NCBI RefSeq assembly: GCF_964194025.1
Contig: NC_134479.1
Location: 38,378,001-38,442,000, forward strand
Source of the DNA: Convolutriloba macropyga
Taxonomy: Eukaryota
Reading direction: 5' to 3'
Length of the DNA stretch: 64,000 bases
Under the pieces are notes generated by a model that did not search any database, had not been told where the DNA came from, and saw only the letters and a program-made list of their open reading frames with translations. This document shows, one piece after another, positions 3,724-33,255 of the stretch. Within the stretch, counting starts at the first letter, position 1; each line of letters opens with the position of its first letter. The position numbers and the translations under genes were made by a program.

Positions 3724-3777
3724 AATGATTGATTTTTCGCATTGTTTAATTTTTCCGACATACAGTTGCGAATTGAT

Positions 3778-8215: not shown

Positions 8216-10789
8216 CCATTCCTAAAATGTAATCAGGATTATTTGAGTTTTTTCTGAGTTTATCAATCAGAATTTAATTACCTTTTGCAGGTTAATTTTT
8301 TCGGCAATTTAAGCACCTAGACAATAATTTTTTGCTAAAACGTTCTTGCAAACTATTGAAGCTACTTATAAACAGTCTCCCCACTCCCCACAGTTACTTC
8401 AATTATTAATCCAATCCAACTTTCTCATTAAAAAAATTGGACGTGCAAAGAATTCATTTTGAGCGAAAGAATGCTAATTGAAGCATTACTAGAGAATTAT
8501 TCTTTATCGAAATCTCCTATCTCAGGTTTGAAAAAAAGAATTTTTGGAGAACTGGCTGGCAACTGGTTAAGAAAATGCAATTACTGCATGTTGGCTGTCA
8601 CGCGAGCAGAGTGTTAGCTGTAACCCAGCCCTGGTTGAAGCCCTTTTGAATATACTATGTTTTATGTTCATTGCGTTTCATAAGTTCATTGCTTACTTTT
8701 TCTCATCTTGTCAAATTTCGCTCATTTCTTGAATTTTTATTCATCTCAAATTTCATACTTTTTTGCATGCTTTTTTTCAACAACTCCGCTGATTCCAATC
8801 AAATTCTGCTCATTTCTCTCATGTCTTGAATTATTGCGCAGAAATTGAGCAGACTTCTCGACTAGGGAGAGTTATGGCATGGTTGTTTTCAAATGCTATG
8901 GATCCGACATCTCCAAAACTGCTGATGCGAAATCATAATGGAAAATTATCTACTTGCCTTGAAAGTGATAGTCCAGTTGTCATACCTGCAAGATTATCAA
9001 GATACCTGCAGAGATATCAAATATCTTTACGTCTAAACGAATGCTGTTTCTGTTTGTTTTCTTTTCATCTTCATTTATTTATCCAAGCTACTGAGGCTTC
9101 CGGCCAAAATCAGGCACTTCCAGGCCATACCAGACTGAAAGTAATTATGTGCAGACTCTCGTGCGTTCTCCATTCTTCCGTGCGTTCATACCCACACACT
9201 GAAAAATCCATCAAATTTTTGTGCGCTAGCCGGAAATTCATGTGTTCATGTTCAGACTTTCGTTCGTTTTTCAATGTTTCCAGACTGTGTAATTTTTAAT
9301 ACCCTTGTGAGTTCTTCTTCGGTCATGAGACACCTGATTTTGGTCTCGAACTGCAGTCAGGTTAGCATTTAGTGGCATTGAAGGTGTACGGTTAATTCTG
9401 ACGCATTTTAAAGATTCACTCAAGGTGATTATTGTTTGTCAAAACCGATTCTGATAGTTCTTTCCAGGTTGAGGCCACGGCTTATGAAACGAATTTATAA
9501 TCCTAATAGGATGCCCAATATTGACTATAAATACACAATCCAGCACCTGGTTAAAGTCAAGGTGAAGTTTTTTCATGGGTCCAGTTTTGATATTTTCATG
9601 ACAAAGTAAAGTCGAATACGTTCTTTTCATAAACTAACTTGAGTCAAGCATGGTCTCTTCATGGGTCAAGAAATTTTTTTGGGATTATGAATTGTTATTT
9701 CTTGTTCATCTCTTGCAGTGGATGCAAAAGCATCACCCAAAAGCTTCAACCTAGCCTTGCAACAGGCTGTCCAACATCAAAAACATTTAAAATTTTGCCA
9801 GATCTCTAAAGATAAATTGAATTCTTAAGATAATTTAGTAGTAACAAATAAGTTATTTTGGGAATTTGATCGGCCAAGTGGAACTAGTTAGCAAAAATCT
9901 AACCATCATACTTTTGTCAGCAATAAGCTTACTGCACTTCCATTAACTTCTGTTGACTACTAGAACATGGTTTTAAATCCGTTGACTACGTTATATTCAC
10001 CAGCTAGTTCTCAAAGTGCAGCTGAACTATTTAGGTCCGGGGTGAACATTTTTGGTCGAGCTGAAGATGTGCAGCATTATTGGGTCGAACTAACATCCAG
10101 CAACAAAAATTGCATTGAAATAAAATCCAGCATGAATAACTTTAGTCGAACAAAAGTCGGGTTGAAAACTTAAGTCTGGTAGTGTCTTTTTAAGTAGGTA
10201 ATGTCTTTTTAAGAGCTGTTTGAATCGACAATGGTTTTTATGCCATTTTTAGTCGACCATATTCTTTTCATACGCCGAGATGTAAATCTGTGTTTCTTGT
10301 TAATATCAACTTCAATCAGGACAGTACAGAACAATATGGCCCCTGGTCGGTTAAATTTCAGATTAATGTGCAGACTCCTGGCCATTTAAAACAGTTTTTA
10401 AACAAAACCTGAAACTTGAAGAGCGTAAATATGGTCTGACCATGATCAATTTTTGATATAAGAAGCAAATTGAGATTTTAATTTATTAACCGTTCATTGA
10501 GATTGGGACAGATGAGAACCGCAACCACGTTTTCTGTCCTCTCCGTTCACCCTAACTAATTTTTTTTTATTTGGTTATTCTTCTTTATTTAATTATTCAT
10601 ATATTTCAAAAACAAGTTTTTTAAACATTCTCTTTTTTCTTTTATTTTTAGAATTCACTATGATTACAGCAACCCATGTCCCCGCTAATCAGAAGATTAT
10701 AGCTCGTTGTTAAATTTATCAGTTTTTGTATAGTCGAATTTTTCAAGAAAGTACTTGGTTCATAACCAACTGAGATCACGCAATGTACA

Positions 10790-13700
10790 AGATAGATGTA
10801 CTAGTACACATACCAGTAATGTTTTAATGCTTTGGACAGTAATTGCTTATGTGTTCAACGAAATTCAATATTGTTTGTTTCAATATTTTTTTTGTTGTTT
10901 TTTATTGTTGTTGTTTTTTATTGTTTTTTTTACCTACGCTTCAAAGTTTGACAGAGCGTGTCTTTTGCCGTCATTAGTAATGACGCTTTTTGCTAAATCT
11001 GTCAATTCTGTAAAAACCCCGTTTTCAAACCCCCATATTTTTTCATAATGTTTTAATCTAGGAAATGCCCTATTTCCTTATCAAAAAATCTCAACTCATC
11101 AAAATGAAGAGCTAATCTTATTTCATATGTTTTATTCCGTCACAATTTACTATAAAGTACTAATAGCATTTCTTTAAGATCCATGAAAACGCTAAATTGT
11201 GTTTCGCATTAATGATTTTAAAGATCAAAGTCATTTTAATTTTTCTGTACAAATCATTTTAATTTTGTTTTTCTGTACAAATCTTCTAAAATCCAATTGC
11301 AACCATCTCCGAAATTGTTCCGTGTCTTTGTTCGAGAGTTGATCCAAGTCGGTCTTTGGTTGTGTCACATTTAATTCGTGTTTCGTCAATTATGTCTAAG
11401 TGGATATCGTCTATAATTATATTAAACCAGTTGTTTTACCCCGGCCAATCCAACGAATTTTTCTTTGAAATGTTTCTAAATTTTGGCAATCAAATTTGCC
11501 GGTTCTGATGTCTAATTAGTAATGGCACTTACTGCTCTCAAAAAATATTTTGATCGTTTGTTTTAGTAAAGTCTTTTCAAACTTGGTATTACTTTTTTAA
11601 AATGTCAATCGGTATTTTTTCCTGCGCCAGTAATTTCGTAGCCTAATCAGTGTATTTCTTTTAGACAATGTTTTCATTTTTTAATGAAACACAAACTTTT
11701 TATCGGCATTCTTCCTAGACAGGCTTCACACAGCTCAATTAATCTTCGATGCTTTCAGTTTTAATCACAACATCACCCAAAAAAAACTAATTGATTCCCT
11801 CCTCCATACCGTTGATGTAAGATGAAAAACTTTTGGAAATCTTGCTGCCATACCCGCCAGTCAGTAGAATCCTGGTAGAAATTTATTTTCCTGTAACTGC
11901 GCTTGCTATGATGTTAAATTTACAATGTTTATTCTTTTCCTCATCAAGGTGTAGTTGGTTATATACGTACACCGAGTCAATGGAATTTAACCAGGTTCCA
12001 CTCTTCTGTTCGTTGGATATCTTCGCTTCTGCGATCTTGTCCAATAGTATGTCTTTACGTGACACCTGATATGTTTTCAGTGGATGGATTTATACAAATT
12101 TATTGGAATCTAGTTGATTGATTGGATTTTTTTTTCTGTTATGCTACAGGATAAATAAATGTTGTTAAAATAGAAGTTGCATTTTAACTCAACTAGAACA
12201 GCCTGCAGCAAAATAATCATACCAATTATGGCGTAAAATTCAATTACTTTATGACGTTCGTTCTAAAAATCTCTTCATATATAACCATTGATACTCTACA
12301 GATTTATTGAAGCAGCAAAGAGCGTAAAAATCGAATTACGATCGAATTACTCCCCATTGATCAAGTTAAATAGCACTGGAACTTTTTAGGTATAATTGTA
12401 TTCAATTCGACCAAACTAAAAAATTAAACTAAATCAATTTAATTTGGTTAGTGGTTTTGTCCTAGTACAGTAGATCAAAATTGAGAGTTAAAGTCAACAG
12501 CTACGACTTCTGTTGGAGAAAAATTTTAGAAAAGAAAATTGATCGTTTTGGGACAACAAAATTGTCCAATAGTGCATGAGGACCTGAAAAACTTGATTTA
12601 AATACTGAAAAACGTGAAAGGAGTTTGAATTCAAAATTTGTAATAACATACTATTATTCAACTCTCAATAAGCAGAGCTCAGTCGCAAACAGAATGAGTT
12701 AGTTGTAAAAGCCTATTATATTTAGTGCCTATTATATTTAGTGACTATTATATTTAGTGCCTATTATATATAGTGGTTTATCACAAAAGAGGTAGGGCTT
12801 CATTGGTGTAAACAAACTACGAATTCAAGCAAACATTCATTTTCAAATTATAAAAATTTCAATTTTTGATGTGTTCTTCAATGACATTTCGTTCATAGTA
12901 CATCACGTCAGAAGACTATAAAAAATATTTTAGGACAGAAACAGAAATCTCCAAAAATTGGAAAGAAAGAAAATTTTTATTTTTATTTTCTTTCAATTAG
13001 GCTAACTGCAGCTCGTACAAGTTAATCAGATGCAATATTCTTAATACTTTTTATGATTTAATTAGTTCTTGATGTATAATTTTGGTTTGAATCCACATGT
13101 TTGACCGGGGCTTGCTAGTGTTGATAAGAAACTAAAAGTACCATGAACATAAAAATGACGCAAATAGCGGTTTCTATATGCATTTTGACGTGTCTTTCTT
13201 TGATTATCATAATTCTCGTAGAAATGGTGTACAACAGCGCTAGAACAATTTTTTTTTAAAGTTGAACCATATTATCTTGATTCGTAGGGTTGTACAATTG
13301 AAATTTGACCTCGTTGAGATTTGAACGCAACAATAACGAAGCCGGGCTGAGAAATCTTATGAAAAATACAGCATTTGCAAAAATACCATGATACTTTATT
13401 GTCTTCAATGGCAATTACTCAGGAGTTAATCAAGTGAGAAGATTGAATGAAACTAATTAATGACAGAAAAAGTGGTTTCCGTGAATTAATTTAGCGGAAA
13501 AATGTCCAAAAATGATTAGCATGACATAAAAAAAAATTAATCCATCAACAAGAACGAAGGAAATTTTATGTGGAGAGGCCAATGAGGCGCATAACAAGCG
13601 GATTTGGGTCCTATTTCAAGTGATGAAAAAAGTGGCTTTGATTCCTTTTGGCTCGAATCAAATTATGAACGCTCTGAGAAAAAACAGCTTCGGTTCCCCA

Positions 13701-14275
13701 ACGATTCACCATCCTATATTGAGGATCGAAAGCCTCAAAATGGGATGGCGAATCGCAAGCATTATTTAGTTATGGGTAACTATATTGACATTTACATAAA
13801 ACTTTCCATATTGTGAAAGTTCGTTCGGCTTTGATAAGTGAATACAAATCCCACGAACAGCTGGCTGTATCATAGCGAAAAACCGTGAGGCATGAGGAAT
13901 TTTTTTATCTTGGACTCGAAAATTACAACGTATCCTGTTAAAAGTTGTTGATTGGGAAACATACGGATTCTAAACACATTTTATCAAGTGTAATTTCTCT
14001 ATCACAATTTGTCGGTCTCATTTACAGTCCTTTTGAGTTGTTGTCCAGGCAACCTTCTGAGGAGTTCTATCTTTTGAAAGCGAGGCCCTAGGACCGTAAG
14101 GGTTGCGAATATTTTGATAGCTCAATGGAAAATGATGGCGATAATAAGAGCTGTTAACTCTTCTTCTTACGGGTTATCCTCTTGTATAACAGTACTAAGT
14201 ATAACAATACAGTATAACAGTACAGTATAACAGTGTAACAGTACTACCCAGGATGAAGTGTGCGACACAAGACCA
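10790..14275. repeat. ~3.5 kb host repeat unit, copy A (holds the empty Polinton target site at 13069-13074)
   Basis: Colinear with 14303-16384 joined to 33256-34665. Confidence 0.9.
11883..12065 (-). pseudogene. Ancient Gypsy RT relic inside repeat copy A
   Basis: LLDKIAE...SIDSVYVYNQLHLDEEKNKHCKFNII..AVTG parallels TLDLQYVYSQLYFHNDTARHCNFNIVSGDMTG of the Gypsy at ~2820-2920. Confidence 0.7.
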
Positions 14276-14302
14276 CCTGGATGTGCCTTACCGACTTCTG
14301 TT

Positions 14303-16384
14303 AGATAGATGTACTAGTACACATACCAGTAATGTTTTAATGCTTTGGACAGTAAGTGCTTATGTGTTCAACGAAATTCGATATTGTTTGTCTCAATATT
14401 TTTTGTTGTTGTTTTTTATGGTTGTTGTTTTTTAGTTTTTTACCTACGCTTCAAAGTTTGACACAGTGTATCTTTTGTCGTCATTAGTAATGACGCTTTT
14501 TGCTAAATCTGTAAATTCTGTAAAAACTCCGTCTTCAAACCCCCATATTTTTTCATAATGTTTTAATCTAGGAAATGCCGTAGTTCCTTATCAAAAAATC
14601 TCAACGCATCAAAATTTAGAGCTAATCTTATTTCATATATTTTATTCCGTCACAATTTACTATAAAGTACTAATAGCATTTCTTTAAAATCCATAAAAAC
14701 GCTAAATTGTGTTTTTCTGTACAAATCTTCCAATATTCAATTGCAACCATCTCCGAAATTGTTCCGTGTCTTTGTTCGAGAGTTGATCCAAATTGGTCTT
14801 TGGTTGTGTCACATTTGATTCGTGTTTCGTCAATTATGTCTAAGTGGATATCCTCTATAATTATATTAAACCAGTTGTTTTACCCCGGCCAATCCAACGA
14901 ATTTTACTTTGAAATGTTTCTAAATTTTAGCAATCGAATTTGCCGATTTTGATGTCTAATTAGTAATGGCACCTACTACTCTCAAAAAAATTTTTGACCT
15001 TTTGTTTTAGTAAAGTCTTTTCAAACTTGTTATTACTTTTCTAAAATGTCAATCGGTATTTTTCCTGCGCCAGTAATTTCGTAGCCTAATCAGTCTATTT
15101 CTTTTAGACAATGTTTTCATTTTTTAATGAAACACAAACTTTTTAGCGGCATTCTTCTTAGACAGGCTTCACACAGCTGAAATAATTTTCGATGCTTTCA
15201 GTTTTAATCACAACATCACCCAAAAAAACTAATTGAACCCCTCCTCCATACCGTTGATGTAAGATGAAAAACTTTTGGAAATCTTGCTGCCATATCCGCC
15301 AGTCAGTAGAATCCTGGTAGAAATTTATTTTCCTGTAACTGCGCTTGCTATGATGTTAAATTTACAATGTTTACTCTTTTCCTCATCAAGGTGTAGTTGG
15401 TTATATACGTACACCGAATGAATGGAATTTAACCAGGTTCCCCTTTTCTGTTCGTTGGATATCTTCGCTTCTGCAATCTTGTCCAATAGTATGTCTTTAC
15501 GTGACACCTGATATGTTTTCAGTGGATGGATTTATACAAATTTATTGGAGTCTAGTTGATTGATTGGATTTTTTTTTCTGTTATGCTACAGGATAAATAA
15601 ATGTTGTTAAAATAAAAGTTGTGTTTTAACTCAACTAGAACAGCCTATAGCAAAAGAATCATATCAATTATTGTGTAAATTTCAATTATTTTATGACATT
15701 CGTTCTAAAAATCTCTTCATATATAACCATTGATACTCTACAGATTTATTGAAGCAGCAAAGAGCGTAAAAATCGAATTACGATCGAACTACTCCCCATT
15801 GATCAAGTTAAATAGCACTGGAGGAACTTTTTAGGTATAATTGTATTCAACTCGACCAAACAAAAAAAACTAAACTAAACCAATTTAATTTGGTTAGTGG
15901 TTTTGTCCTAGTACAGTAGCTCAAACTCGAGAGTTAAAGTCAACAGCTACGACTTCAGTCGGAGAAAAACTTTTGAAAAAAATGATAGTTTTTGGACAAC
16001 AAAATTCTCCTCATATCAACTTCAGTTGATTGCTCTAAATAGTGCATGAGGACTTGAAAAAATTGATTTAATTACTGATAAACGTGAAAGGAATTTCAAT
16101 TCGAAATTTGTAATAACATACTATTATACAACTCTCAATAAGCAGAGCTGAGTCGCAAACAGAATTTCAATTTTTGATGTGATCTTCAATGACATTTCGT
16201 TCTGTAGTGCATCACGTCAGAAGACTCTAACAAAATATTTCAGGAGAGAAACAAAAATCTCCAAAAATTGGAAAGAAAGAAAATTTTTATTTTTAACTTC
16301 TTTAAATTAACCTAACTGCAGCTCGTACATGTTAATCAGATGCACTATTCCTAATACTGTTTATGGTTTAATTAGTTTTTGCTG
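14303..16384. repeat. Repeat unit copy B, left part (interrupted by the Polinton)
   Basis: Starts AGATAGATGTACTAGTACACATACC like copy A; colinear with ~10790-13074. Confidence 0.9.
15325..15507 (-). pseudogene. Ancient Gypsy RT relic inside repeat copy B
   Basis: Near-identical paralogue of 11883-12065. Confidence 0.7.
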
Positions 16385-16480
16385 AGTAGTAAGTAAATAC
16401 TGTCTCAAGAGAGTGGGGGGTTATCCTACGATACTTAAACATGGGATAATAGGGGGTTATCCTAAACGGAAAGGGATTAA
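16385..16480 (+). repeat. Polinton left TIR (96 bp)
   Basis: Reverse complement of 33160-33255 with 2 mismatches; contains GGGGGTTATCCTA twice. Confidence 0.97.
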
Positions 16481-16686
16481 CTTTCATTCTTTACCAGATG
16501 TGATTATGTAAGACTATTTCCAAGGCGGCAAACTTGTTTTCGGTCAAACAGTCAACTTTGTTCTAAATTTTGTTCCGATAAGAGCTTCAAGTGAACAATT
16601 TATTGAAATGTATCCTGGCACTCATAAACACAAAATTTACACGGTTAGGAATTCAAAAGGCGCAGTTTGGGCAGTTAGGTGCAAGT

Positions 16687-19600
16687 TTATTGTCTGCGCG
16701 CAAATTTAAATGCTGGTTCTTCTTCATAATTGCTACTACTTTCACTGCACTCATTAGCTTCATAATTAATGAATGGGTTAGGGGAGGAAGAGCTGGAGAT
16801 GGTGGTAGCATCAGAGTCTACAATATTATCGCTATCAATATCGTATTCGTTAATAATACTTGTCATTAATAATCATGGGTCAGGTGTTTCCCGTTCCTCC
16901 TGGCTTTCACTTGTTGTTGTATCTGGCACAACGAAACTATTATTATGGTCTCAGTTTGGACTCGAATCTAGAAGATGAGCATAATTTTCCACATTTTCGG
17001 AGTCCCACTCTACTTCATCGCTATCCCCAGAAAAATCTTCGACTCGGCAGTGATCAATATTATAGTGGCCAAATGTTAGTGCTTAAATTCCCCCGTTCAA
17101 AATGTGGCGTTTATTATCAAAGGCAGATAGACATATTTTATTTGTTGAAACCGTTTGTAGAACATGCTTTTCCAAAACAATCCTTGTATTTCATCGCGCA
17201 GTGTACTACCAGTCACAAGTGTGTTATTGTAGTCTGCATGTCGAAGCAAATTTTGGGCTGCTCTGGTTATTCCTTTGGCGGATATTTTTTGGTTACCTAT
17301 GAAAAGAAAAAAAAGCAGTCAAATCATGACAATCATACAAGGTTAGTTGTTACATTGTTAGTTTTTTCTTGAATCATTAAACATAAAATACTCACCAGCG
17401 GAAGTAATGCTGTACAGCTTTGGCTTCAGACATATAAACTCTTTTATATAACCCCCAGCAAATTCGTCTTCGAATTTTAAGACGACGCGTTTATTTTCTT
17501 CGCTGTAAAGTTTGTGATCTTCTGTGTAATTTGAGAAGTCAAACTGATCAAGAACATTGCTCTCCTCCTGTTCACGGTAGAGATCTTCACAATTGGTCCG
17601 CTATAGCAAGCTATCAGTATCACTATAGAGTAATCGACAGTCAAATGAAGATCGCATTGTTCCATAGTGAAACTGATACATGTAGTACTTTGCTAGATCA
17701 AGTATTGTGGCCCCTACTATAGTTGGTGTATCCCAATAGGTTTTTCTTGGGCGGGAGGAGAGAGCTGCCAAGTTCTCGCCAAACACTTTGAATTTATCAA
17801 ACTCAAACTTGCTTACTATGGTCAGGGTTCGTCTTGCGTCTCTCGTAAGCTCGATTTTCATCTGTCGACATTTCGATTCGCAGTTTTTCCCATAAACGGC
17901 GTTGTTCATTAGTTTATAGAAACTCTCCTCAAATTTTTTCGAAGCAGCTTGTCTCTTCTCACTATTCAGGGTTATATAGGGTATTAACCAATTGTTTTGA
18001 GTAAACTGTAGCACACGATGCATTTTCCTAACCTCTAATCCCAAGTTAACATACAGTTTTAACAGCTTGTAATGCAGCACATAATGTTCTTTGTCGAAGA
18101 AAGTCTGCAACAGTTTTGGAACTTTTGAGGGGGGTAAGTTATGACTCTCTCACAAATTTACGTGGTAGTCGCTGAGCCAGTCATCCTCAACAATATTTTT
18201 TGATGGTGCGAGGGGGAAGTCTTGATGGTAATCGTGTAGACTTGCTGGATAATGCAAGTCGACTTCCACGAAGTAACCGACAGGGTTATCATCAGGACAG
18301 TTTAGTATCTCAGCCAGTTTAATATCAGAGTTCAGCGTAAAATCTGACTGAGAGAGTTTTTCATTTTGCATGACGCCAGCGCATAGGTTATTGGCGTCCA
18401 CGCAGAAGCCAAATGTCGAGGGTTGTGAAGAGTCATAATCTGGCAAAAATTTATTATTTGCTGTAAACTTTCTCATCTTGTAGACTGAGCATACTCCCCC
18501 ACGTACTGCGCATTCTATCATATCGAGGTGCTCGCGTTCTGTGAGCATTTCGACTTCTGCCTTGCATATTCTCAATGATGCTTCCTTAACCATATTTGAC
18601 AGTGTGTAAAAGTGCATGCAGTCGAGTTTGTAGGTGGAGAAACTGAGCTCTCTGTGGTACTCACAAACGCATGCGAAAAAAGCGCAATCGGTTTTCAGGT
18701 ATGCATCGTGGTAGTCTTGTAAAGTTTGACAATTCAGAGTGTTCCACATCGTCTTGGCATGGTTCAAGTTTTCTTGAGTTATTGTTACTGCGTTTCCTTC
18801 TAAAGTGTTACGCCATTCATTAAGTGGCGGTAGGGATTTTTCGATGAACTTTTCTCGACCGCTAACATATGAATAGGGGTAATATCCTTTATGCTGGAGG
18901 AGCTTCAATTCTGTTGAGGATAGGTTAGGGAAGACAGAAGCAAGTATTCCAAAACGATCTCTTGGTAAAATGTCAACCAACTTTTCGAGAGACGAATTCA
19001 TCATTTTGAATGAATCAATAAACCTCAGATTTTCATAATTTTTGACCACTTTTCCATCATCTAGGGTTATGGTCTCTACGAGCACTCCAAAGTTCATGGA
19101 AATGTACTTTTCATCAGTAGACGGAATTACACTTACAGTGGTCGTTGGCTCACAAGATTGCAGGGCTAAACAAATGTGGTGAAGATCATAATTTTGTATA
19201 TTATGACCCATCAGAGGGGTAAAGTTGACGTTCCTTCGTGCTCGGTTGCATTTTTCTTGAGCCCAGCCAAGAAATTGTCCGCTTTAGTGGCAGTGATCCA
19301 GATCTATTGATGACTGTTCATCATTATCGTCAAAGGGTTCGTTACATATCAAATATTCCCTAGCTGCACTTTTCGGATACTGGCTACGGTCACCTCTGAA
19401 GAAAGGAAAAGCTCGTTTGCGCTTGTATATATCCTTGGCTAGTGTGTGTAACTTGTTTACAAATTTAGTAATGCAATCTTCAGAGCTGTCCTCGTGGAAA
19501 AAGATGGGTTTTGTTGAGTTGTGATCAATTACCGCAAGTGAAAAACCACAGGATCGTGTTTTTCAATAACACTGGTAAATGCGTTGATCCCTTGTGGCGT

Positions 19601-20925
19601 GCATCCTGCTACTGGACACAAGAAGGATTCGAAGTCAAAGTAAATGACTAATGGAACAAATCATGTGGTGGCCAAGTTTTTGAATTTATATAAACTCTTT
19701 CCCGGAGCTGGTAATCGAACAACGGCCGGCGCATTTTCACAGCAGGTCTCCATATGTTCGGTAAGCTTTGCAAGGCCTTCTTCACACAACCCGAAACAAT
19801 TCGGGCAAATATGAAACGCAAAGCGGAATTTGGTATTTCGGAGTTGACAGACTACCTTGACCAAATTGGTAATCAAAACAAAATGGTCAAAGTCAGCTTC
19901 GCATAAAAACAATAGATCCATTGTGAAGTTTGAGACAAACTTTGACACTCTGTGTGGAAATAAGTCTCTACCATCATAACCATAAACGTTGATTCGAATT
20001 TCATTGAGATTTTTGAACTGATTGATGTCTTCTAGCCCCATGGGCATATCGAAATGTCCAATTGGTTGATGGAGGTTGGCTTGCTTGTAAGTTTCAGGTG
20101 ATGTTTTGTCTGTATTTTAGTTCCTTCCTGGTCGATCTAAGCTAATATTGTTGTGCATATGATATGCAGCAATATATCAGTAAAAGAAGCAATTTGCGTC
20201 TTTATGATTACAAATATTAAGTAAACCGCGGCAATTTTGTAATTTTGATTTTAATGCAAGGTAAGACGAGCCAGTTACAGGTCGGTAGTGGGCAAAGTTC
20301 AATGTCGTTAGCACTATCATCATCTTTTGGACCATAGTCCAAAAGGTCTCACTGCTAAGTCAATGACTGTAAACGGGTGTCATGAGCGAATTTGCATAAA
20401 TTTCAATAAGTTCATCTTCTTGACCTTCGTTTTGACTTGGTTTTCGGAGTTGAAGATGGGCACTAAATTGAACTTTTGCGATCCCTGTGAGAGTTTTTGT
20501 TCTATAAGCGAATCGATTTGTGGTTTATGCTGGAGCATAAACTGAGTAAGGTCTGTGTTGGCTTGGGTTGTTGATGGCGGCAGATGGTATCTATGAAGGG
20601 TACCATTAAAGGCAGTTTCAGCCGGCGCTTGAGTTAATTGAAATTGATCGCCAAAGACAGGTAAAGAATGCAAAGAACTCATATGCTGAGCAATGAGTCT
20701 GGTGTCGTTAAAACCCATATAGCAGGACCGACAAGAGTTTGTAAATTTTTGATGACAAGTCCTCATGTGTTGTTCCAGTTCAGAAAGTTTTCTACAATTG
20801 AATGTACAAATACAACAGGTGAAGACTGGTAAACCTACTTCGTCGGGGTGGTGACGATGCTCATGTCTAGATTGATTTCCCCTGTTATCAAATGTTGCCG
20901 AACAATTTTTGCAATTGAAAACCAT
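16687..20925 (-). pseudogene. polB: Protein-primed family B DNA polymerase with N-terminal C2H2 zinc fingers, EndoVII/HNH-like insert, one intron and an acidic C-terminal tail; frameshifted
   Basis: ExoI YFDFES, ExoII HNIQNYD, ExoIII YLKTD, motif A DANNL, motif B KLMNNAVYGK, motif C YSDTDS, LKPKLYS, SAKGI, LSAFDNKR, FGHY; DHCH...G..CN insert at ~19230-19360. Confidence 0.95.
17297..17395 (-). other. Putative spliceosomal GT-AG intron (99 nt, phase 1) in pPolB
   Basis: Donor G|GTGAGT, two ACTAAC branch-like motifs, TTTTTTTTCTTTTCATAG acceptor, in-frame TAA inside; removal gives KLYSITSA-G-NQKISAKGITR. Confidence 0.85.
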
Positions 20926-21030
20926 TGTTGGAAAATTCAAGATTCAAAAGTTAGCAGAGATAATGACAACTTTCGTAAACATGTAATTCAACTTCAAATG
21001 GCGAATTTCTTTCTATTCCACACGAGTCTC

Positions 21031-21078
21031 TTATAATAGGCGCGCAATTTAAATTTCAAAATTTCCAATTTTGATTGG
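21031..21078 (-). promoter_or_regulatory. Candidate pPolB core promoter (CCAAT box then TATAA)
   Basis: Minus strand CCAATC at ~21078-21073 and TATAA at ~21035-21031, about 105 nt upstream of the ATG at 20925. Confidence 0.45.
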
Positions 21079-22776
21079 ATAATATGAGCGCGCGTTTTGA
21101 CCCAGCTTTTGTCAACTACTACGAACATATCGAGTTGCGTTGAACTAAAAGTAGCGCTCTACGTTTCCCACTGAACAACACTGACATGACAAAACTTGTT
21201 TGAGATTTTCGAATATTTAGTGCAATATACAAAAAGACGTCTAAAACCATGAATAGTTCTTTTTAGTTTTTAGCTATATGCGACAAAACATATCAATGGC
21301 AACTTTTAATTAAATTTCAGGTTTATTTAAAGTAAACTTTTATGAATTCTTAATGACATTTCAATCAAAAATGTCCGTCTTTTTTCTTCATTTTGATAGC
21401 TAATAAGCTCTAATGAAGAGGGAACATTTGTGTTTCAACCTTTTAGATGTAATATTATACTTCAGTAGCATACCTAAAAAGAAAATTTCGATCTGATTTC
21501 ATCAGAATTTTTGAAAAACATTCCAAAAACATCGGTTTTTTCAACACTTTGTTAAATTTTAAGTACAAGGGATGCTTGGGACTGTTATGATGCATAGTTT
21601 TATTACTGTTACGGTGTTTGAACTGCTAATAAGTCCACTAAAAGCAAATGAAATATTCATTTTTTTCGCTTAATGTTGCAAAAAAAGCGGTTTTTGTAGT
21701 TTTTTCACTGTAGATACCGGTGGGTGCGTCTGACAATGTTGGGCGTCGTAACAAAAAATGCTCCCCGGGCACTAAAACGTAGGAACCGACAAGAAAAAAT
21801 CCCTCATCTTTATCAGGAAAAAAGTTGGTTTTTCTGCCAATCATGATCAATCAATGTCATCACATGACAGCCAATGACAAGCCCCCTGTTGCAAACATTT
21901 TTCGATGACAGCTGTTATGAGATGAATTTGTCTCCAGCCCTCAAAAAATTGGTTTTTAAGAAAAACCTGGTGTATCATTATTATTTCGGGTACATCAATT
22001 GCTAATTAATGCCAGATGTTAATGAGACGTTAATGTCCAGATGTTTTGAAAATCGGTGAAGGAGCCGTTTTTCGGCCCTGGCCCCTATGACCAGAAGTGA
22101 CAAGCATGTATCAGTCATTACAAATCCAATTAACAAAATGGGAATTTTTTTTCATTACTTACTAATTAGACTAATTAGGTGCTAATTAGATATTAATTAA
22201 TGGTTAATTATCTCATGAGTTTAAATTGACGAGCGTTATGAGCTTTTTTGTAGTGCAGTGTCTGATAGTATCAACCAAATAGTCCGCTTCATCCCAACTA
22301 TCTGTTGGAGCCGATTTTTTTGGGGTCAAAGGTCACCATGAAAAACCAAAAAAAAAATTCGTTTTTTTTTCAACTTTTTTTTTAGAAAAATGTGCTTTTT
22401 TTTAATCATATCGATAGCCCACATTAATCGCTTGGTAATGACGTTCAGGTTTTGAGTTTTCGTTCCGTCGAAAAAAATTTATTCGGCAAAAAACCGAAAA
22501 AATCTCATTTAAAAAACCTTTCTTTTTTCCTCTTTTTCGCTGAAAAAATGATGTTTTGCTAGTTTAACTAACACCTCAAGGTATATCCAAGAGGAGCGCT
22601 GGTATTATACAAGCATACCAAGAACGATTTGCTAAAAGAAGTTTGGGTTTGATAAGGAGTTTATGCATTTTTTGAAGCTTTTGTTCAAACCTAATTTTAC
22701 ATTTTATTAGCTTTCTCAACAAATTTTCTCTCAACCAATCACAAGCTTGGTTGCTTCCTGTTATATATTACCTTCT

Positions 22777-22796
22777 GAACATGTTTGAACATGTCC
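22777..22796. promoter_or_regulatory. Perfect p53-family response element (GAACATGTTT-GAACATGTCC)
   Basis: 20/20 match to RRRCWWGYYY x2, zero spacer, CATG cores; function untested. Confidence 0.7.
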
Positions 22797-22847
22797 ATTT
22801 TCAAAATTTTATCTCAGTTTTGTCTCACTAAACAGTACTGTTTTTGT

Positions 22848-22867
22848 GAACATGTTTGAACATGTCC
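22848..22867. promoter_or_regulatory. Second perfect p53-family response element, identical to 22777-22796
   Basis: 20/20 match to RRRCWWGYYY x2; part of a 26-bp direct repeat. Confidence 0.7.
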
Positions 22868-23067
22868 ATTTTTGTAAAATTCTGATTCTGAAGTAAGCTA
22901 GCTATGTAAAAACATTAAAAGAAGAGTGTCAATAAGCGAGCTATTCACAAAAGATAGTAACACAACACACCAAAGTGCAAAGGAATTATAATTCACTAAT
23001 AAAAAAGTTGTTAGAGGTCAAAAAAGTCCATTAGAGAGTCTTCCTGTCTTCGTTTTTTTGGTGCTGC

Positions 23068-23729
23068 TCATACTACTGGAGTTTCCGAGCAATTGGGTGT
23101 CTTGACATCGGCTGAATTTGTTGGGGGTTGTGGTGTCTGAAAGTTTGAACCAGATAAAATATTGACATCAAACTGACTTGTATTTGCAAAATTGTCAGAG
23201 ATCTTGTTCTTACTCTGGAAATCCTCAAAGAGTGAAAGGCTTGGGGTTGGAGTAAAAGTTGGGCTTGGATCCACAGCAGGAGTTGTCGGAACACTGACTG
23301 AAAAACTCGGTGGCTGACTGTCCGGTGAGGATGGTGATGATTTGACACCCCACATATCACCAAATTTTTGTAGGCTTGATATGTACTGAGTTGATTCTCG
23401 AATAAGGGCACGCAATCGCAGTCGTATCTGTACAAGATACGTCTCACTTCCTCCGGCAAAGGTTCTTCAGTAGAATGCATTTGTGGTATAGTTTTTGGTG
23501 GTAAGTGTCCTCCAGAAGTAATGATACTGGATTCAGCCGGCTCCGTTTTTTCCGTTAGGGCAGCAATAGAGTTCATAAATAGCTTCGGTATCAAATAATG
23601 CTGGTAAGTGTACCACAAATCGTTTTTTCTTTTCTGTTGTATCAGAACGACAAAATTTTCAAACACGGTTTGGTAAACAAGAGTTCTCTCAGAAGAGATA
23701 GCAGACTCCGAAAACATTTTCACGGACAT
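23068..23729 (-). pseudogene. Polinton accessory ORF of unknown function with Ser/Pro/Thr-rich C-terminus (probably one gene with a frameshift)
   Basis: Overlapping ORFs 23073-23744 and 23068-23415; ATG at 23729 preceded by a strong splice acceptor. Confidence 0.55.
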
Positions 23730-23786
23730 TGTTTTGAAGTTCAAGTTCGATTCAATAGTTAACTGTTAAGTAAGAGCAAAAAAAAG

Positions 23787-24640
23787 AAATGAACACAAGT
23801 ACAAAATTCTTTCCCAACATGTGTTTCGCAAGGTTCGCCTTATCTAAGACCAAACAGATGACTGGAGCATAATCGCACCTAGTTGCATAATATATTGTAT
23901 ATAACATGTGGTTAGCCGCACTGTGGTTCCTTTACAGAGGAATTTGGGGTCACCTCTGTGGTGTATTGGTTATATGTAAGTTGTGTGTATTCTCTGCACT
24001 ATACTATCTAGGGTCACATCTGTTCTAAATCAACTTGTATGTAAATTACATGGGTCCCTACACTATTAATGGTTAACTATCTCCCGCACAGAAGTGTGGG
24101 TTGTGCTGATAAATTTTTTGCTTTATATACAAAACACATGTACTTGTTATTTTTGTTCGCAAGTAGGTTCTGGTGGTTTATTGAGGTATGGTCTTAATTA
24201 ACTATTATCTAAAAATGAACACAAGTACAAAATTCTTTCCCACAATGTGTTTCGCAAGGTTCGTCTTATCTAAGATCAAACAAATGATTGGAGCATACCT
24301 TTTAGTCACGCCTAGTTGCATAATACAGCTTTTTGTTTATAGCATGTGGTTAGCCGCACTTTGGTTCCTTTACAGAGGAAATTGGGGTTACATCTGTTTT
24401 GTTTTGGTTTTATGTAAATTGTGTGTGGTGTCTACACTATACTATCTAGGGCCACATCTGTTCTAAATCAACTTGTAAAATACATGGGTCCCTACACTAT
24501 TAATGTTTAGCTCTTTCCAACACAGAAGTGTGGGGTTGTGTTGGTAAATTTATTGCTTTATGTACAAAGCACATGTACTTATCCTTATTCGCAAGTAGGT
24601 TCTGGTGGTTTATAGAGGTATGGTTTTAACTAACTATTAT
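23787..24640. repeat. Two diverged tandem copies of a ~425-bp unit inside the Polinton
   Basis: AAATGAACACAAGTACAAAATTCTTTCCC at ~23787 and ~24212, colinear to ...AACTATTATC. Confidence 0.9.
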
Positions 24641-24837
24641 CAAAGGTCACATACGTATAACAGTCTAAAATGAGCAGTCTCAAGTACGCCGTGGGGCGTA
24701 CTTGAGATTGCATTTACCAATCACTTGGATTTAATTAAAAATATGACGATACTGGTTTGATTCCAACATGCCGCGCCTCTTAACTTCGTAGTTATTTACA
24801 TATTGTTGACTGAAAGTGATCAAACAAGTTGCCTACC

Positions 24838-25783
24838 ATGCCTTTTACTTCCTCAAAAGACACACAGTTTGGAGATTGCTATTTCGACATTTCCCAAACA
24901 GAAAAACGTTTGGTCAGGGCAACTTTAAAAACGTACAAGAGAACTGGAACATATGTGTTTCTAAAATTGCTCAAGAAAGCGGCTGAGGATTACCTTTTTG
25001 AACAGAGAATTTCTCTGACTCTAGAAGAGTTTGGAAATTTAGTCAAAGAAGCAGAAAAATACGTGAATCTGCAACGCAAGATTCCCCATGAAAACAAGCC
25101 CCAGCAAAAAAGCAGAAATTTGATCAGTGTAGTAAAGATGGTGGAAGCAATGTTTGAGCGATCTCCCAACTATTTCAAACAATTTCAAAAGCAGTTCAAG
25201 TTTTTAATTGCTAACGAAAAGCCAAACTTAACAGCTTCGAATAACTATGCTGTGTGTCCTCATTTTGAGTCTGAATTTTGTCAGTTACCCACTAACCCTT
25301 TCCACGTTCTGATTGAGAGTGCAGTCGATGTTGAGACCATGAAGCCAATCAAAACTTTTGCAGTTCCCTGTCTCTTCACTACCTTCAGACACTTTTTTTC
25401 AACTTCAACGAGTCTGGAATTTAAAGGAGATACATTTTCAAAATTACAGCTTGCCGTTTTCTTTAATAACAAATCTGGAGAGAAAAAGGATACAGCAAAC
25501 GTACGCAAGCGACTTCCACCCTGGGCAACAGCGGCAATCAAACTACCAAAATCTACAGCGGTCACTAGCGGAGTCTCAGAAAACGATTCACAATTTTGTG
25601 TGTTCTACAATTTCATCGAAAACTCAAACTGATCAATTTAGTAGTGAAACTTTGAAAAGAGTGGAATCAATTTTGAGTGGATCTCATTCTGGTGCTGTTT
25701 GTCAGATTATGGATATATTTATGAGTGGTTTTGGGTATATGAAGAAAAAAATCAGTTTAAAAAAATTTATTTCACAATGTTAG
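24838..25783 (+). pseudogene. Plus-strand Polinton accessory gene(s): N-terminal PC4-like ssDNA-binding domain followed by an unknown region
   Basis: YFDISQTEKRLVRATLKTYKRTGTYVFLKLL...QRISLTLEEFGNL fits the PC4 beta-sheet plus 'ISL..EEF..L' helix pattern; continues via a frameshift into 25358-25783. Confidence 0.55.
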
Positions 25784-25788
25784 TTTTG

Positions 25789-26214
25789 TTATAGCATCAT
25801 GTGAAGAGCAAAGCGAATCGATTGAAAATCACTACAATTTACAATTTGTCTATTATCAAATATTAAATGAGCAATAAAAATACAAAAGAGTCCGCACAAT
25901 TCTGAGTTTTGACTTTGAATTCGTTGTTGTTCAAGTAATTGGTGAAACTGTACATTATTTTTTGCAAGTCGTTGATAAATATTCTTGTAAGAAGACAACG
26001 ATTGACCAAGGGGATCAGCAAACAGAAGATGGTCGCTTTTTTTACAAATGAGGAGCCAGTGCGTGCCAGGACTTTGAGATTTTGACGCATTTACTATTAA
26101 AAAAGTGTTTGATTTCAGTTTTGAAGGAAAATTGTCTGCTGCAAATACACCTCGAAACTTGTGCTTTAGTTTTTGACATCTCTGAATTAAAGCATTAATG
26201 TCGTCTCCGTCCAT
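25789..26214 (-). CDS. Adenain-like (C5) cysteine protease, apparently intact
   Basis: FRGVFAAD, IVN..., GTHW (His), FADPLG (Asp), IQ...LCGLFC (Gln/Cys). Confidence 0.93.
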   Translation of the reverse strand: MDGDDINALIQRCQKLKHKFRGVFAADNFPSKLKSNTFLIVNASKSQSPGTHWLLICKKSDHLLFADPLGQSLSSYKNIYQRLAKNNVQFHQLLEQQRIQSQNSELCGLFCIFIAHLIFDNRQIVNCSDFQSIRFALHMML

Positions 26215-27559
26215 CAGTTTGTTAGAATATGATTTTTTGACACTCGTCGCGCAGTATCAACAAAAATTGTACTAGCTTTTTCTCCAATGATGAAAGTTTC
26301 AAAGTTGGTCGGTAAGGCCGCTGAAAACCTCAACTCGATAGATATGGAACAGTTTGTTAGCTCCGGATGTATAAAATCATGAGAAGCTTGTTAGGTGCTA
26401 GTCAGATCAAATACCATTATAAAATGGTTGGGATAGTCTGACAGACTTATTCCGTGTCCATTGTCAATATAGGCTAAACCCGATATTGTATTAAAATAAA
26501 GGCGTTTGTTAACAGTTGTAGATATTGGGCTATCAGCCACTGGTAACCCGTTGCGATAAATATATAACTGTTCCAAGTCAAATTTTTGAAAATGAAATGG
26601 ATTTTGCATGTTATCGCCCAAAAAAGCTTCGTTTGTATTGAGACAAATGATTAATCTTCGGATTGGCTCTCGTGCAAAAATCTCCTCTTGCTTTCAACTA
26701 TGCAGACCAGTTGAAGCCAAAAACGTCTTTGTCAAAGTTGCAAAGTAGGGATAGGCAGCATGGCTAGTAAACAAGGTTTTTTCAATGGCAGACACGAACT
26801 CGTCATTCAATGTCATCTTGCGAACGTACAAATTAGCTTCAACAATTTTCACCTTGTAATGTTTTGCAGCAACATCGGAAACGATAACTAAGTCATCAAT
26901 AGATCTTTTGAATGCAATACGAAGTTTTACACCACTGAGCAAATGTTTATCACATGTGAAAAAGTCTGCCGCTTAAAGTTTACCATAAAAAGTGCATTCT
27001 GCAGAAAAAGTTTACCATAAAATGTGCATTCTGCAGACTCTCTGACTGAGTTTTTTCTTCATGCAATTTCCGCTGCTTTTATTGTAGATGGATCTTCTTC
27101 GTAAGAATAGCCTTGACATGCCAACCAAGTGTTCTTTGCATCTTTGTTATGTGAGAACTCAGTTTCTTTAAAACTCTTGTGTGCGTAACTTCCATTTGCG
27201 TTAGAGGTTTTCAATCCGTTGGCTGACACTGTGCAGTCAGAGAAAAGTGAATGCAACACACTATTGCAAAAGTTAGGAGCATCGGTTCTAGCAGTGTCAC
27301 CAGTAGCTGCCCCGTCATATTTGAGATCAGCTCCCGAACACTGAACAATTTTGCATTTGATTTCTAATAAATTTTTTTGTAAATCAATAAAATTGTTACG
27401 GTCACCAGTTACCTCGAACTCTAACATGGTTCCATCAGGACTATAAACAGGTCCCAATTTTTGACAAAAACTTCCATCGAAAGTCACCAAGAGCGCCAGC
27501 TTCTCAAACAGATCCAAATAGCTATGGGTTGCTTCGTTTGGTAACAGGTTAGCGATCAT
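26214..27559 (-). pseudogene. Major capsid protein (double jelly-roll, hexon-like), fragmented
   Basis: LDLF...LEFEVTG...FIDLQ...LHSLFSDC, L.GVKLRI, NLYVRK, NPFHFQKFDL, FDLT, ISIELRF pieces; stop codon overlaps the protease ATG (TGATG). Confidence 0.9.
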
Positions 27560-27634
27560 ATTTAACTTGAGAGAAGAAAACAGACAGACTTCTTTTTGGA
27601 AATTTTTGTTTTGAAATGTCCAAATTTTGTTTGG

Positions 27635-27978: not shown

Positions 27979-27979
27979 G

Positions 27980-28866
27980 CTAATTGAAAATTTTTTTGAA
28001 CTGAAGAGTTAAAATGACTTTACCGGTTCCCGAAAAGTGAACCAATTCTCCCGTTTCGGTGCGAAGCTCAATCGATATTGATTGTATAGTGCTTGATATG
28101 AGTTTTTTGTAATCTAAATTGGAAAAAACAATTCGATGAGTTGGTTCAAGATCGCAGACACTACTGTTTTTCAGACCTTGTTTTGAATCAATGACTCGAA
28201 GCAAGGGGGCTTTTGTATCACCAACGTACTGGTACTCAATCATATACGTATATATGAAAATTAAGTGCTTTCCTGAGCAAAGATCAACGGGAAATTCTCC
28301 ATAGTATGCTGCCGTTTCATCACTCTTCATTAGTCTGTTTGATGTTGCGCTTTTCATTTTGTACCCTATGTGTACTCCACTGTCATCTGGAATGCCCGAA
28401 AAACCAATAATGCTCGGAACTTCTTTACTGGGAAAAGTAATTCCTTCAATTTTACCCATCAAAATTTCAATCTTTCCAGTTTGCTTGATCTCTCTGAATG
28501 AAATGTTTGGTAGTCCAACAGTTCGTTTGATAGTAGTTAGTATGTCAACAACTGAATTAAATGTTCCCGTCATGATAGACAATTTCTCCTCGTTATAAGG
28601 ACGAGAGATCACATTGGCTTCAGTAGCCCTTTTCTGGCTGTCTTCGTACCCTTTTAAGCTATATACTACCATGCTCAATTTACACTATGCTCAATTTTTG
28701 TGGGGAAAATGATCTCACTGAGAGCTACTCTCCAGTTACCAGCGAGTTGAATTTCATCATTGAAAAGGTTTTGAAATGAACTGAGAGTGTTAGAGTCAAA
28801 GATTTCCATTGAAGCAGATGAAATAGCATGCACAGTGAATTCATCTGTGAAACGGTTTTCACTCAT
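27980..28866 (-). pseudogene. Minor capsid protein (penton), one frameshift
   Basis: F....SSAS..IF..NTLSSF...L.GNWRVALSEI.FP at the N-terminus; IFIYT..IEYQYVGDTKAPLLRVI...ISIELRTETGELVHF at the C-terminus. Confidence 0.88.
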
Positions 28867-29790
28867 TTTTCTCTATACGAACAAGCTGTAACTCTGGTTG
28901 ATAAAATTTGCCTTCAATTTTGTCACCGTTTGCATCAATAAGTGAATACGTTGGTGGATTGAAGGTTGCTAAGCTTTCTACTTCAAATACTTCGTCGGTG
29001 AAAGATTGTTTATACCCTTTCCTGAAGGCTTCGTCCTTTTTGACAATTCTAACAAAATCTCCAACGTAAAATCTCCAACGGGTCTCTGAAACTTGATTGT
29101 TTGAGCGCTCAAAGAGACACGTCGTGGAACATTCTTTTTAGTGACTCTATTTGGAGCAAGTTTCGTTACGCGGTTGACCCGTGAGTTAATTGTTTTCACA
29201 AATTGATCCAGTTTATCAATATAGGAGTATGTCCACTTTTCTGCAAGGTATTTGTAGATAATGTTTTTTAGTGATCGGATGTTCCTCTCTGCGAATGCAG
29301 ACTTTTTTCCACTAAAAGTGCTGTATAAATGAACTTTTCGTTTGCTGCATAAGGTTTTGAAGGCTCCAAGAAACTCTGTGCCATCATCAACCCACACTTT
29401 TTGTGGTTGCTTGTTTGTTTTTTATCATTTTTTAAAGGCCGAGGGAGTTTCCGTTGCATAATTCGTTTTTAAGGGCTCCACACGAAGGTACCTGGAAAGA
29501 CAGTTGACCGCAACCAATAAATATTTAACATTTCTGTAGTATTTTGCTAGTTTATACACATAAGCCAAGTCAACGGACCAAATTTCATTTATGTCTTTTA
29601 CTATTACTTTAAGTCTAGGAAATCGTAAAAGAATTAGGCGATATTTTGCAAAAGATGGCTTGGTTTCCAAGTATGTCTTAACTTTACCAAATGATAATTT
29701 GCCTTGGGTTTTTAGTCGCGTTGGCTTTCCAAACGATGCAGGTTCCTTCAAATACAGTTGGTCCAACATTTTTTTCTCAAAAGAATTAAG
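28859..29790 (-). pseudogene. Retroviral-like (rve) integrase, frameshifted
   Basis: LY...SFG, WSVDL, YLLVAVNCLSRY, WVDDGTEF, AERNIRSLK, PPTYSLID..G..IEGKFYQPEL. Confidence 0.93.
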
Positions 29791-30480
29791 ACCATTTTTG
29801 CTGTTTGGTCTCGTCTTTTGCCATCTTTTTTCTTGTACCCGTTTTTGTTTGGTTGATAACTTGATTGTCCTAGTGGGCTTGCAAAAATGTCTTCTTCGCT
29901 TTAGATGCTTCCAAGATCTGTTTGGCATAGGTATTCGACACTAAATGAGGTGAAAGTTCGAGAGCTAATAACGCTCTAGAATATTTTTGAATATCAATTT
30001 TCTTTGTTGACTGCTGTGTTATACAAAAAATTGACGCTTTTAAGGCAAGTGGTTGGTTATCAATATGAACGATACCACCTGGATCTTCAATGGATACCGT
30101 CGGGGATTCTAATATCTTGTTGAGAATGATTTCTGCTCTTCCGATTTTGTTTTTCTCCATCACTCCCAAATCTCTCATTATTGAGTGAAACGTTGTAGTT
30201 GTACTTTTTTTGACAATAGGTTCAATTTAACTGTCATCTCTCCTGGATTCCTCTTTTTCCTCATGGACTGTATCAACCTTTATGCTGGGTTCTGTCTGGA
30301 CTGCTCCATCCTTTTTTTTTACTTTTTTCCGGTTTTTGAAACATGTTTCTTTGAATGAGAGATAATTGCGTGGCTTTGTGATTGTAAACAGGATTATCAA
30401 AAATTTCACAAATTTCACTTTGCCGGTTGTGTTGACATGAACATTCTTTTGGGAATTAAAATAAATTCTTCAGTATACAT
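29787..30480 (-). pseudogene. Polinton hypothetical protein between ATPase and integrase, fragmented
   Basis: ATG at 30480 (MYTEEFILIPK), pieces 30227-30418 and 29870-30178; position and style match a common Polinton ORF. Confidence 0.55.
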
Positions 30481-30569
30481 TATCACTTCCTTAGATGAAG
30501 GTAACATGAGAGAGCAATACCTTTCAAAAGAACCGTGTTTTTAGCAAAAATCTGCCTTTTATTTTTTAA

Positions 30570-31412
30570 ACTTGTTTGTTTTGATAAAAGTTTTTTAAAT
30601 GAATTTTCCTGGCCTTGTATCAAAGTTTTCTTGCCGTTGACAACATTCAGCAAACACTCGCAAAGAAAGTTAATAAAACTATTTGGTGCCGACTTGAATT
30701 AGTTCTTTTGATTTTATGTCCGATGTCTCTATTATTCGCCGCAGCATACAAAGCTCTTTCTCCCTCCTTACTCAAATTCGTTATAACAGCTTTAGCTGGG
30801 GGAAGGTTAAAAAACGGATGGTCCTGGTGGAACAAAATTGGAGCAGTAACGTAAAACGTCCGAGGTTTTTGGATCCAGATCGATCAGTAAATGACCAAAG
30901 GGTTGTTTGGTTGCCAGCTTGTAGCTATCTTTCAAAAATTGCGTGTTATTAAGCTGTTGACCAATTAAACCAATCTGTTGAATGTCACGGGGTGATTTAA
31001 ATAAAATGATTTGTGTTGTATTAAGATTAATAGTTCGTGACTATTTACTTTGTTGAAATAAATTGTGTTTTACGTATATTATACTAATGTTTTTGTGACG
31101 TCCTGCTGTAGCCAATTTCGAAAACTCTTTGTCATTGAAAATTTCTTCGCATGAATCGTCAAACACAAACAGACAGTTTTCGAGCTCCGATATCAAATCG
31201 AAGCTTGAAAATTTGGTAAACTGTATGTTTAATTTTGCCTCTAGTGACTTAAATTTGGGTTGCTCATGTTGGTAGAAATAAAAAATCGAGAAGAACTTTG
31301 GAAAAAAAGTGCTTTCGAGTAACATTCTGAGAATAAGCTCTTTTTTACCACAACATGACGGGTTGCAAACGGCCATAAACAACCGGTCAGTTGTTGAAAT
31401 GATTTTATTCAT
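30570..31412 (-). pseudogene. A32/FtsK-like DNA packaging ATPase, inactivated
   Basis: Degenerate Walker A (CNPSCCGKK), Walker B FVFDD, GRHKNISIIYVKHNLF, NTTQIILFKSPRD. Confidence 0.92.
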
Positions 31413-32141
31413 AATTTTGGGTTGGGAAGAGCAAATCCAACTGTATAAGAGAGAAGAGAAAACCAAAATGTAGACTCTTCACATTCCAGCTGAAAAAACA
31501 CAATTTTTACCAGAGAAAATATTATGAGAAAAATTATAATGAAAACTTGCGTTAAATAAACAACTTCTGATCGTGGTATCCTTGAATCACAAGACCTCTA
31601 TGATCGTCTTTCATGGTGATTATCATCAAACACTAAGTCAGTTATTACCCCGCCCGTATCTAACTGATCCTCTGCTTTACTCATTTCCAAATAATTTTTT
31701 TAAAAAAGAGTTAAACTTGGTTATTTCATTATATAAATTTCATAAGTTAGAAATTGTGAGTTTTGAATATCATTAATAAAAGTAATGGTGTAGTTCGCAT
31801 TTACTCTGTCAGTTTTGTCTCTGAAAACAATTGACTGTACGTTGTTCTTTTCAATTCTTATTGAAATCATGTCCTATTTCAGCTGGAAGGCTCTTATCGT
31901 TCAGTGACATCAGATTTGGTACTGCACGATTGGGCATAGGTAAAGGGGTTAGTTTCAGTTTTCGCATTTTCTCTTCCAAAGACATGGTACAATTGAAAGT
32001 ACTCCAAAAGCGAAAGGTATTTCTTGAAGGCTTCTATTTCAGCTCCAGTAGAGACAATTTGCTGTTTCCTCAGTACAGTTTGACCACGATTGTCAACTTT
32101 TTCCTCTTTGACAAATGTAACTGTTAATTGATTTTCATCCG

Positions 32142-32717: not shown

Positions 32718-32759
32718 TCCAGCAAACTGAATAAATAGATTTTAAAAGTTTTTTAATAA

Positions 32760-33124: not shown

Positions 33125-33159
33125 GACGGAAAAATGAGTTTCAAGGCGGCCTAATCCCC

Positions 33160-33255
33160 TTAATCCCTTTCCGTCTAGGATAACCCCCTATTATCCCATG
33201 TTTAAGTATCGTAGGATAACCCCCCACTCTATTGAGACAGTATTTACTTACTACT
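33160..33255 (-). repeat. Polinton right TIR (96 bp)
   Basis: Reverse complement of 16385-16480. Confidence 0.97.

Follow-up and report, generated by a model that had tools for sequence, protein, structure and literature searches.

Introduction

Polintons (Mavericks) of vertebrates and nematodes are bounded by terminal inverted repeats (TIRs) and a 6-bp target duplication, and encode a protein-primed family B DNA polymerase (PolB), an rve integrase, an ATPase, a protease and a capsid protein. Their core genes are stated to be intronless in the accessible text of a study of vertebrate Mavericks (Barreat and Katzourakis 2021, PMC8097293) and in that of a study of nematode Mavericks, where only cargo genes are noted to have introns (Widen et al., bioRxiv 10.1101/2022.07.12.499685). 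Endogenous mavirus-like elements without introns are described in the accessible part of a further report (PMC8547959), group I introns in elements of cryptophytes and other protists in that of another (PMC12220804), and host-gene trans-splicing by Polinton repeats in the accessible portion of one Polinton paper. Here, we describe a Polinton in a 64,000-nucleotide stretch of the genome of Convolutriloba macropyga (RefSeq assembly GCF_964194025.1, contig NC_134479.1, positions 38,378,001 to 38,442,000 of the forward strand), which is called the window below. This element shares these traits, with a probable capsid protein gene, but whereas the core genes of vertebrate and nematode Polintons are intronless, its polymerase gene carries what is very likely a functional spliceosomal intron, apparently common to a whole clade. 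An initial annotation of the window had called this insertion an intron and had remarked that Polinton core genes are usually annotated as single ORFs; for vertebrate and nematode Mavericks, the passages cited above agree.

Adenovirus is a nuclear virus with a protein-primed PolB, and its polymerase mRNA is spliced by the host. In adenovirus, splicing attaches a short leader to a single long frame, whereas the splice considered here would interrupt the catalytic core near its C-terminal end. Adintoviruses are also close: the PolB of a spider adintovirus is among the relatives of the window polymerase (40% identity over the searched region), and the Pfam model PF03175 matches weakly, as in the divergent Beta PolB class, to which the window polymerase probably belongs (Starrett et al. 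2021, PMC8502044, accessible text). The spider adintovirus PolB differs in being contiguous at the site of the insertion, and a word search of the accessible text of PMC8502044 found no spliceosomal intron in PolB.

Spliceosomal-type introns do occur inside Polinton-like elements of dinoflagellates, as introners; according to the accessible text (PMC11957031), these are mobile and mostly inserted after integration of the element, whereas the intron described here occupies a single fixed site, has eroded interiors and would be inherited with the element. The third intron of the P element is, like ours, the last intron of a mobile element's key gene, and its retention gives a truncated protein (PMC7776569, accessible text). 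It differs in that no silencer-like conserved sequence was found in our case. A spliceosomal intron conserved in Polinton polymerases is not mentioned in the literature available to us, which did not cover the 2006 founding paper, subscription papers, Repbase entries and supplements.

Results

The insertion in the window copy

The polymerase gene and the insertion within it comprise the following features:

17396..20925, minus strand: polymerase exon 1 (N-terminal part up to the YSDTDS and KxY motifs), with stops and frameshifts in this copy
17297..17395, minus strand: very likely spliceosomal intron of the polymerase gene (phase 1, GT-AG), 99 nt here and 97 nt in most family copies
17390..17395, minus strand: 5' splice site GTGAGT
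17342..17362, minus strand: two ACTAAC motifs, which are not conserved in other families; here no AG separates the proximal one from the acceptor
17297..17322, minus strand: TTGAC, 26 nt from the end, as a candidate branch motif whose use as branch point is presumed; pyrimidine tract and CATAG acceptor
16690..17296, minus strand: polymerase exon 2, which encodes the KG motif, the folded C-terminal part and the acidic tail; in this copy it has stops and loses its frame near 17190

The gene encodes a protein-primed family B polymerase; PF03175 hits the window fragments below its curated cut-off, and structure comparison of an intronless relative finds phi29 polymerase (E 6e-19). The insertion starts with GTGAGT, contains ACTAAC twice (starting 66 and 51 nt before the 3' end) and a T-rich tract, and ends in CATAG; it is flanked by KPKLYSITSA upstream and NQKISAKG downstream. 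Coordinates, strand, length, GTGAGT, both ACTAAC copies and the location in the polymerase gene are as the initial annotation gave them. An in-frame stop, which it had also reported, is present, although there are three (codons starting at 17360, 17345 and 17321), not one. Excision does restore the spacing between KxYS and KG, at the 10-11 residues of intronless homologs; LSAFDNKR and FGHY, which had been read as following on, are out of the SAKG frame in the window copy (exon 2 frame shift near 17190). Four sequencing runs of unrecorded kind, in the form of contigs with DNA-like cover, were inspected over 16400-19300; the 15 of 50 joints listed include none at the intron ends, which is no evidence either way.

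Three younger copies match the window copy at about 91% identity; the two pairs of them that were compared are 98-99% identical. Most genes of the window copy are broken. It is a decayed fossil; other copies in its family retain open frames. Exon 1 contains several stops and frame breaks (e.g., stops at 18150-18152 and 17601-17603), and because of these and the frame change near 17190 in exon 2, this copy could not encode the polymerase even when spliced.

A DNA search of the genome provided 30 loci of the same family from the best 40 of 153 candidates, which were scored. The insertion is present in all 30, at 97 nt in 22, 98 nt in five, and 99, 94 and 92 nt in one each; the donor GT is retained in 28 and the acceptor AG in 29. 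Since 99 nt is private to the window copy and 97 nt is typical, the insertion is not a 33-codon coding segment and its frame-preserving length is accidental. These values and the same site in other families bear out the original preference for an intron over an open insertion. In several younger copies, a frame that is open for 1,212 codons ends within the insertion, and a second open frame lies beyond it.

Other families in the genome and relatives elsewhere

Further families were sought with protein queries from the window, the database and metagenomes. Each search returned about 1,900-9,500 first-look candidates, of which only the best were scored, so that the counts given here are lower bounds. 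Families were separated by flanking residues and intron sequence; unparsed decayed loci made up 9/69 in one set and 1/80 in another. At least 15 related Polinton families are present, several with near-identical copies and long open frames, and at least 13 carry an intron at the identical site between the KxY and KG motifs, always in phase 1 and 4-5 codons plus one base past KxYS. Their intron lengths are 97, 152-155, 135, 150-160, 165, 171-177, 114, 146-156, 178-182, 157-163, 155-156, 110 and ~208 nt; with the intron discounted, YS and the KG motif lie 10-11 residues apart, matching contiguous relatives. One family has retained a GC donor, which reads GCAAGT at 13 of the 15 loci resolved with a GC donor. 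A GC donor is a recognised splice variant. Two copies of this family (L254 and L270) show an altered intron start and a long low-complexity T/A expansion. Two intronless families, checked in DNA, run directly to the KG motif, and both are multi-copy with long open frames.

Intron lengths occupy all three frames within families, as seen in several families found with queries limited to exon 1. An apparent excess of lengths divisible by three (11 of 15 lineages) and deficit of in-frame stops (26 versus 40 expected) were set aside as probable search bias, because those families had been found with a full-length query and the exon-1-only queries show all frames. Separately, family D (L195 and sister loci) has a 159-nt intron in 22 of 25 parsed unbiased copies, with the frame kept in 23 of 25 and a single stop in 53 codons, which may be chance or a trace of coding origin.

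The metagenome and viral set comprised 84 loci (80 from metagenomes, four from IMG/VR), 34 of which were not parsed automatically. Manual inspection of the 12 closest metagenome loci, which fall into several lineages, showed that 10 extend to the site and that each of these has the donor. Six metagenome lineages contain full introns (63, 59, 63, 101, 60 and 60 nt), and across the 13 genome families and these six, i.e., 19 lineages, the intron ranges from 59 to ~208 nt. Two of the six metagenome lineages were searched for in this genome and neither had a close match, so these likely come from other hosts. A single-protein scan of IMG/VR gave no match; an alignment scan gave the four distant loci, of which one was unparsed and the other three have an open frame at the site. 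Of 120 protein relatives listed, 25 end or read into an insertion right after KxYS, 73 (including the spider adintovirus PolB) are contiguous and 22 are indeterminate. Intron state read from protein agreed with DNA in all six lineages having both.

In one subclade nested among relatives that lack the first intron, seven proteins (P0056, P0057, P0058, P0060, P0062, P0063 and P0069) break right after FHY and before YSDTDS, in most cases with K-V-S or K-V-G. To judge from the protein sequences, this group may have a second intron site here, in phase 0; no close family that could supply its DNA was found in this genome.

Splice signals and intron interiors

Signatures were examined in the first 15 lineages. 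The parser required a G-T/C start and an AG end, leaving other positions unselected. The donors are 14 GT and one GC. Among unselected features, phase 1 and a pyrimidine at both -3 and -5 occur in 15/15, G at donor position +5 in 9/15 and T at +6 in 11/15; these positions fit the spliceosomal pattern, which indicates an intron signal beyond chance. A loose YTRAY motif lies 18-40 nt before the acceptor in eight lineages. CTAAC occurs in only two, and the ACTAAC pair highlighted in the initial annotation is thus not a conserved feature. None of the 105 pairs of interiors from these lineages shared sequence beyond shuffles at p<0.01. Retention truncates the protein by a stop or frameshift in 13 lineages; in the other two, the intron is stop-free and in frame.

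Exon 2 and protein structure

Exon 2 is under purifying selection: among 15 family pairs, nonsynonymous divergence (pN) is 0.23-0.58 versus a saturated synonymous divergence (pS) of 0.71-1.01. This saturation also explains why the interiors are unalignable. Exon 2 has no start codon common to the families and no shared methionine, though family A has a methionine early in it. Three families open the long polymerase frame with a similar methionine, and a spliced leader upstream, considered as a candidate, is therefore not required, although one may exist.

The AlphaFold model of P0049, an intronless relative (mean predicted local distance difference test, pLDDT, 86), has phi29 polymerase as its best structural match. 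The site falls in the turn of a beta-hairpin made up of the KxY strand (810-815) and the KG strand (820-824); about 90 confidently folded residues and then a disordered acidic tail follow it. We take the part past the site to be the thumb, from the known architecture of family B polymerases. The model supports the earlier proposal that retention would remove this C-terminal part.

Phylogenetic distribution

In a tree of 144 rows, every intron bearer falls in one clade of 77 rows; the 67-row outer clade has 63 labelled rows, all contiguous. A maximum-likelihood tree of 56 rows was rooted on eight distant rows, with near-duplicates and most indeterminate and most distant rows left out. Its 46-row clade (support 97/89) holds all intron bearers, with two intronless rows branching below and intronless groups nested inside. 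Five changes of intron state are needed on this tree, and a constraint grouping the intron bearers apart from all intronless rows was rejected by the approximately unbiased test (p-AU 0.0002). One old gain with about four losses would be the simplest reading, and it fits. Neither the exon-1 alignments inspected nor the comparison of families A and B revealed a second shared intron site.

Other features of the element and the window

The window element is a 16.9-kb Polinton whose 96-nt TIRs are 98% complementary, with AGTAGT-type ends and TTGCTG on both sides. Besides the polymerase, it comprises:

16385..16480: left TIR, beginning AGTAGT and preceded by the 6-bp target duplication TTGCTG
25792..26226, minus strand: adenovirus-type maturation protease gene
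26217..27631, minus strand: probable double jelly-roll major capsid protein gene, decayed here; Atlas match through a sister-family protein
28862..29937, minus strand: rve integrase gene, decayed here
30698..31478, minus strand: packaging ATPase gene (A32-like), decayed here
33160..33255: right TIR, followed by TTGCTG

Integrase, ATPase and protease were recognised by Pfam on younger family copies (PF00665, PF04665 and PF00770, respectively) and then mapped onto the window element. The capsid candidate had no Pfam match on those copies; its sister-family counterpart has an Atlas score of 0.98 to a cluster in which 30% of members carry PF21738. The recognised genes of families A and B align as plain frames, without sign of further introns; small unrecognised genes were outside this comparison. 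Rfam, which covers group I and II self-splicing introns and other curated RNAs, gave no matches in 16300-33400.

Upstream of the polymerase, about 650 nt (21721-22355) lack a long open reading frame and are ~70% conserved between families A and B, although the flanks are unalignable. This segment has repeated TAATTA and CAGCTG words and long identical blocks, with no Rfam match, and is possibly a promoter/enhancer or a structured RNA. Alignment to younger copies revealed an internal inverted repeat of about 400 nt at ~23790-24640, between two divergently oriented gene blocks. Elsewhere in the window are a retrotransposon RNase H-like domain (1867-2418, minus strand), tandem duplications that recur every ~3.4 kb and arrays of ~355-nt hairpin-containing units (10889-15518 and 52800-61100), and related hairpin arms at 13701-13755 and 34097-34151.

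Discussion

We consider it probable that the insertion is an old, ordinary spliceosomal intron, carried since before the families diverged, which the host spliceosome would remove to give a complete polymerase. This view follows from the same site and phase in 19 lineages, the splice-type ends, the unrelated interiors, the selected exon 2 and the nested intronless relatives. The polymerase gene would be transcribed in the host nucleus, and the major (U2-type) spliceosome would remove the intron near-constitutively; an unspliced message would yield a clipped protein in 13 of the 15 lineages. The intron may have been gained once, in the beta-hairpin turn between the KxY and KG strands, and later lost precisely, likely via recombination with reverse-transcribed spliced message.

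Several points weigh against this view. Splicing itself is deduced from sequence comparison. Donor strength is variable (G at +5 in only 9/15), so that splicing may not be uniformly constitutive. The tree by itself accommodates one gain with losses and parallel gains alike, most of the contiguous relatives in the clade are represented by protein sequences (DNA was checked for two host families), and the route of intron loss is one that we purely infer.

The initial annotation had suggested that the intron could be a regulatory switch, comparable to the germline-specific intron of the P element. Spelled out, this would mean that splicing is confined to the germ line or to activation, and that retention otherwise leaves an inert or repressing, C-terminally truncated polymerase. 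It is the only intron found in the polymerase gene, lies near the 3' end, has persisted over deep divergence and truncates the product in most lineages if retained; moreover, piRNA (PIWI-interacting RNA)-linked retention in the P element does not necessarily depend on target sequence (PMC7776569, accessible text), so a missing motif is not decisive. Nevertheless, synonymous conservation shows no excess near the donor (four-fold-site identity 0.34, 26/77, within the 0.21-0.38 seen elsewhere in exon 1 of six families, in a coarse test), the interiors share no sequence, at least two families that lack the intron have many copies and long open frames in this genome, and two lineages have stop-free, in-frame introns. 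We therefore regard such a switch as unlikely, and find similarly doubtful its clade-wide, host-controlled form, in which germ-line splicing would give active polymerase, retention elsewhere a clipped repressor, and intron loss an escape. An ordinary, largely constitutive intron is favored because intronless families are abundant alongside and no conserved regulatory sequence is found.

Several parallel gains at a favored site, e.g., via intron-generating transposons, would account for the unrelated interiors; deep branching inside the clade is poorly supported, and introners populate dinoflagellate Polinton-like elements (PMC11957031, accessible text). However, phase and site are identical in 19 lineages, no second site is shared in the alignments checked, the labelled rows of the outer clade are all contiguous, and saturated synonymous sites already account for the unalignable interiors, which makes this scenario improbable. 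That the insertion stays unspliced, i.e., is dead, separates exon 2 as its own gene or is read through by ribosomes, draws on the sequence-only case for removal, the early methionine of family A and the two lineages open through the insertion, but we give it hardly any credence, given young families with open frames on both sides, within-family lengths in all three frames, the several stops, the lack of a common exon 2 start codon and splice-type bases at unselected positions.

We thus return to the old, ordinary intron, which in our judgment is a real feature: a spliceosomal intron in a Polinton core gene that appears to be clade-wide, ancient and repeatedly lost. The polymerase of this lineage likely depends on host splicing, as originally suggested. 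Such an intron runs against the working assumption of intron-free core genes in Polintons. It also affects how polymerases are catalogued. A recent survey used a 900-residue length cut-off (bioRxiv 10.1101/2023.08.22.554363, accessible text); exon 1 alone is open for about 1,200 codons and passes such filters, so that a polymerase would be filed as complete while missing its C-terminal part, and 25 of the 120 relatives listed look like exon-1-only polymerases. If the intron was precisely lost several times from a replicon that copies DNA into DNA, this would suggest that host reverse transcriptases have a hand in remodelling the replicon's genes. Finally, an inherited intron in the replicase argues for nuclear transcription of this clade rather than transcription in a giant-virus factory, and bears on how Polintons replicate.
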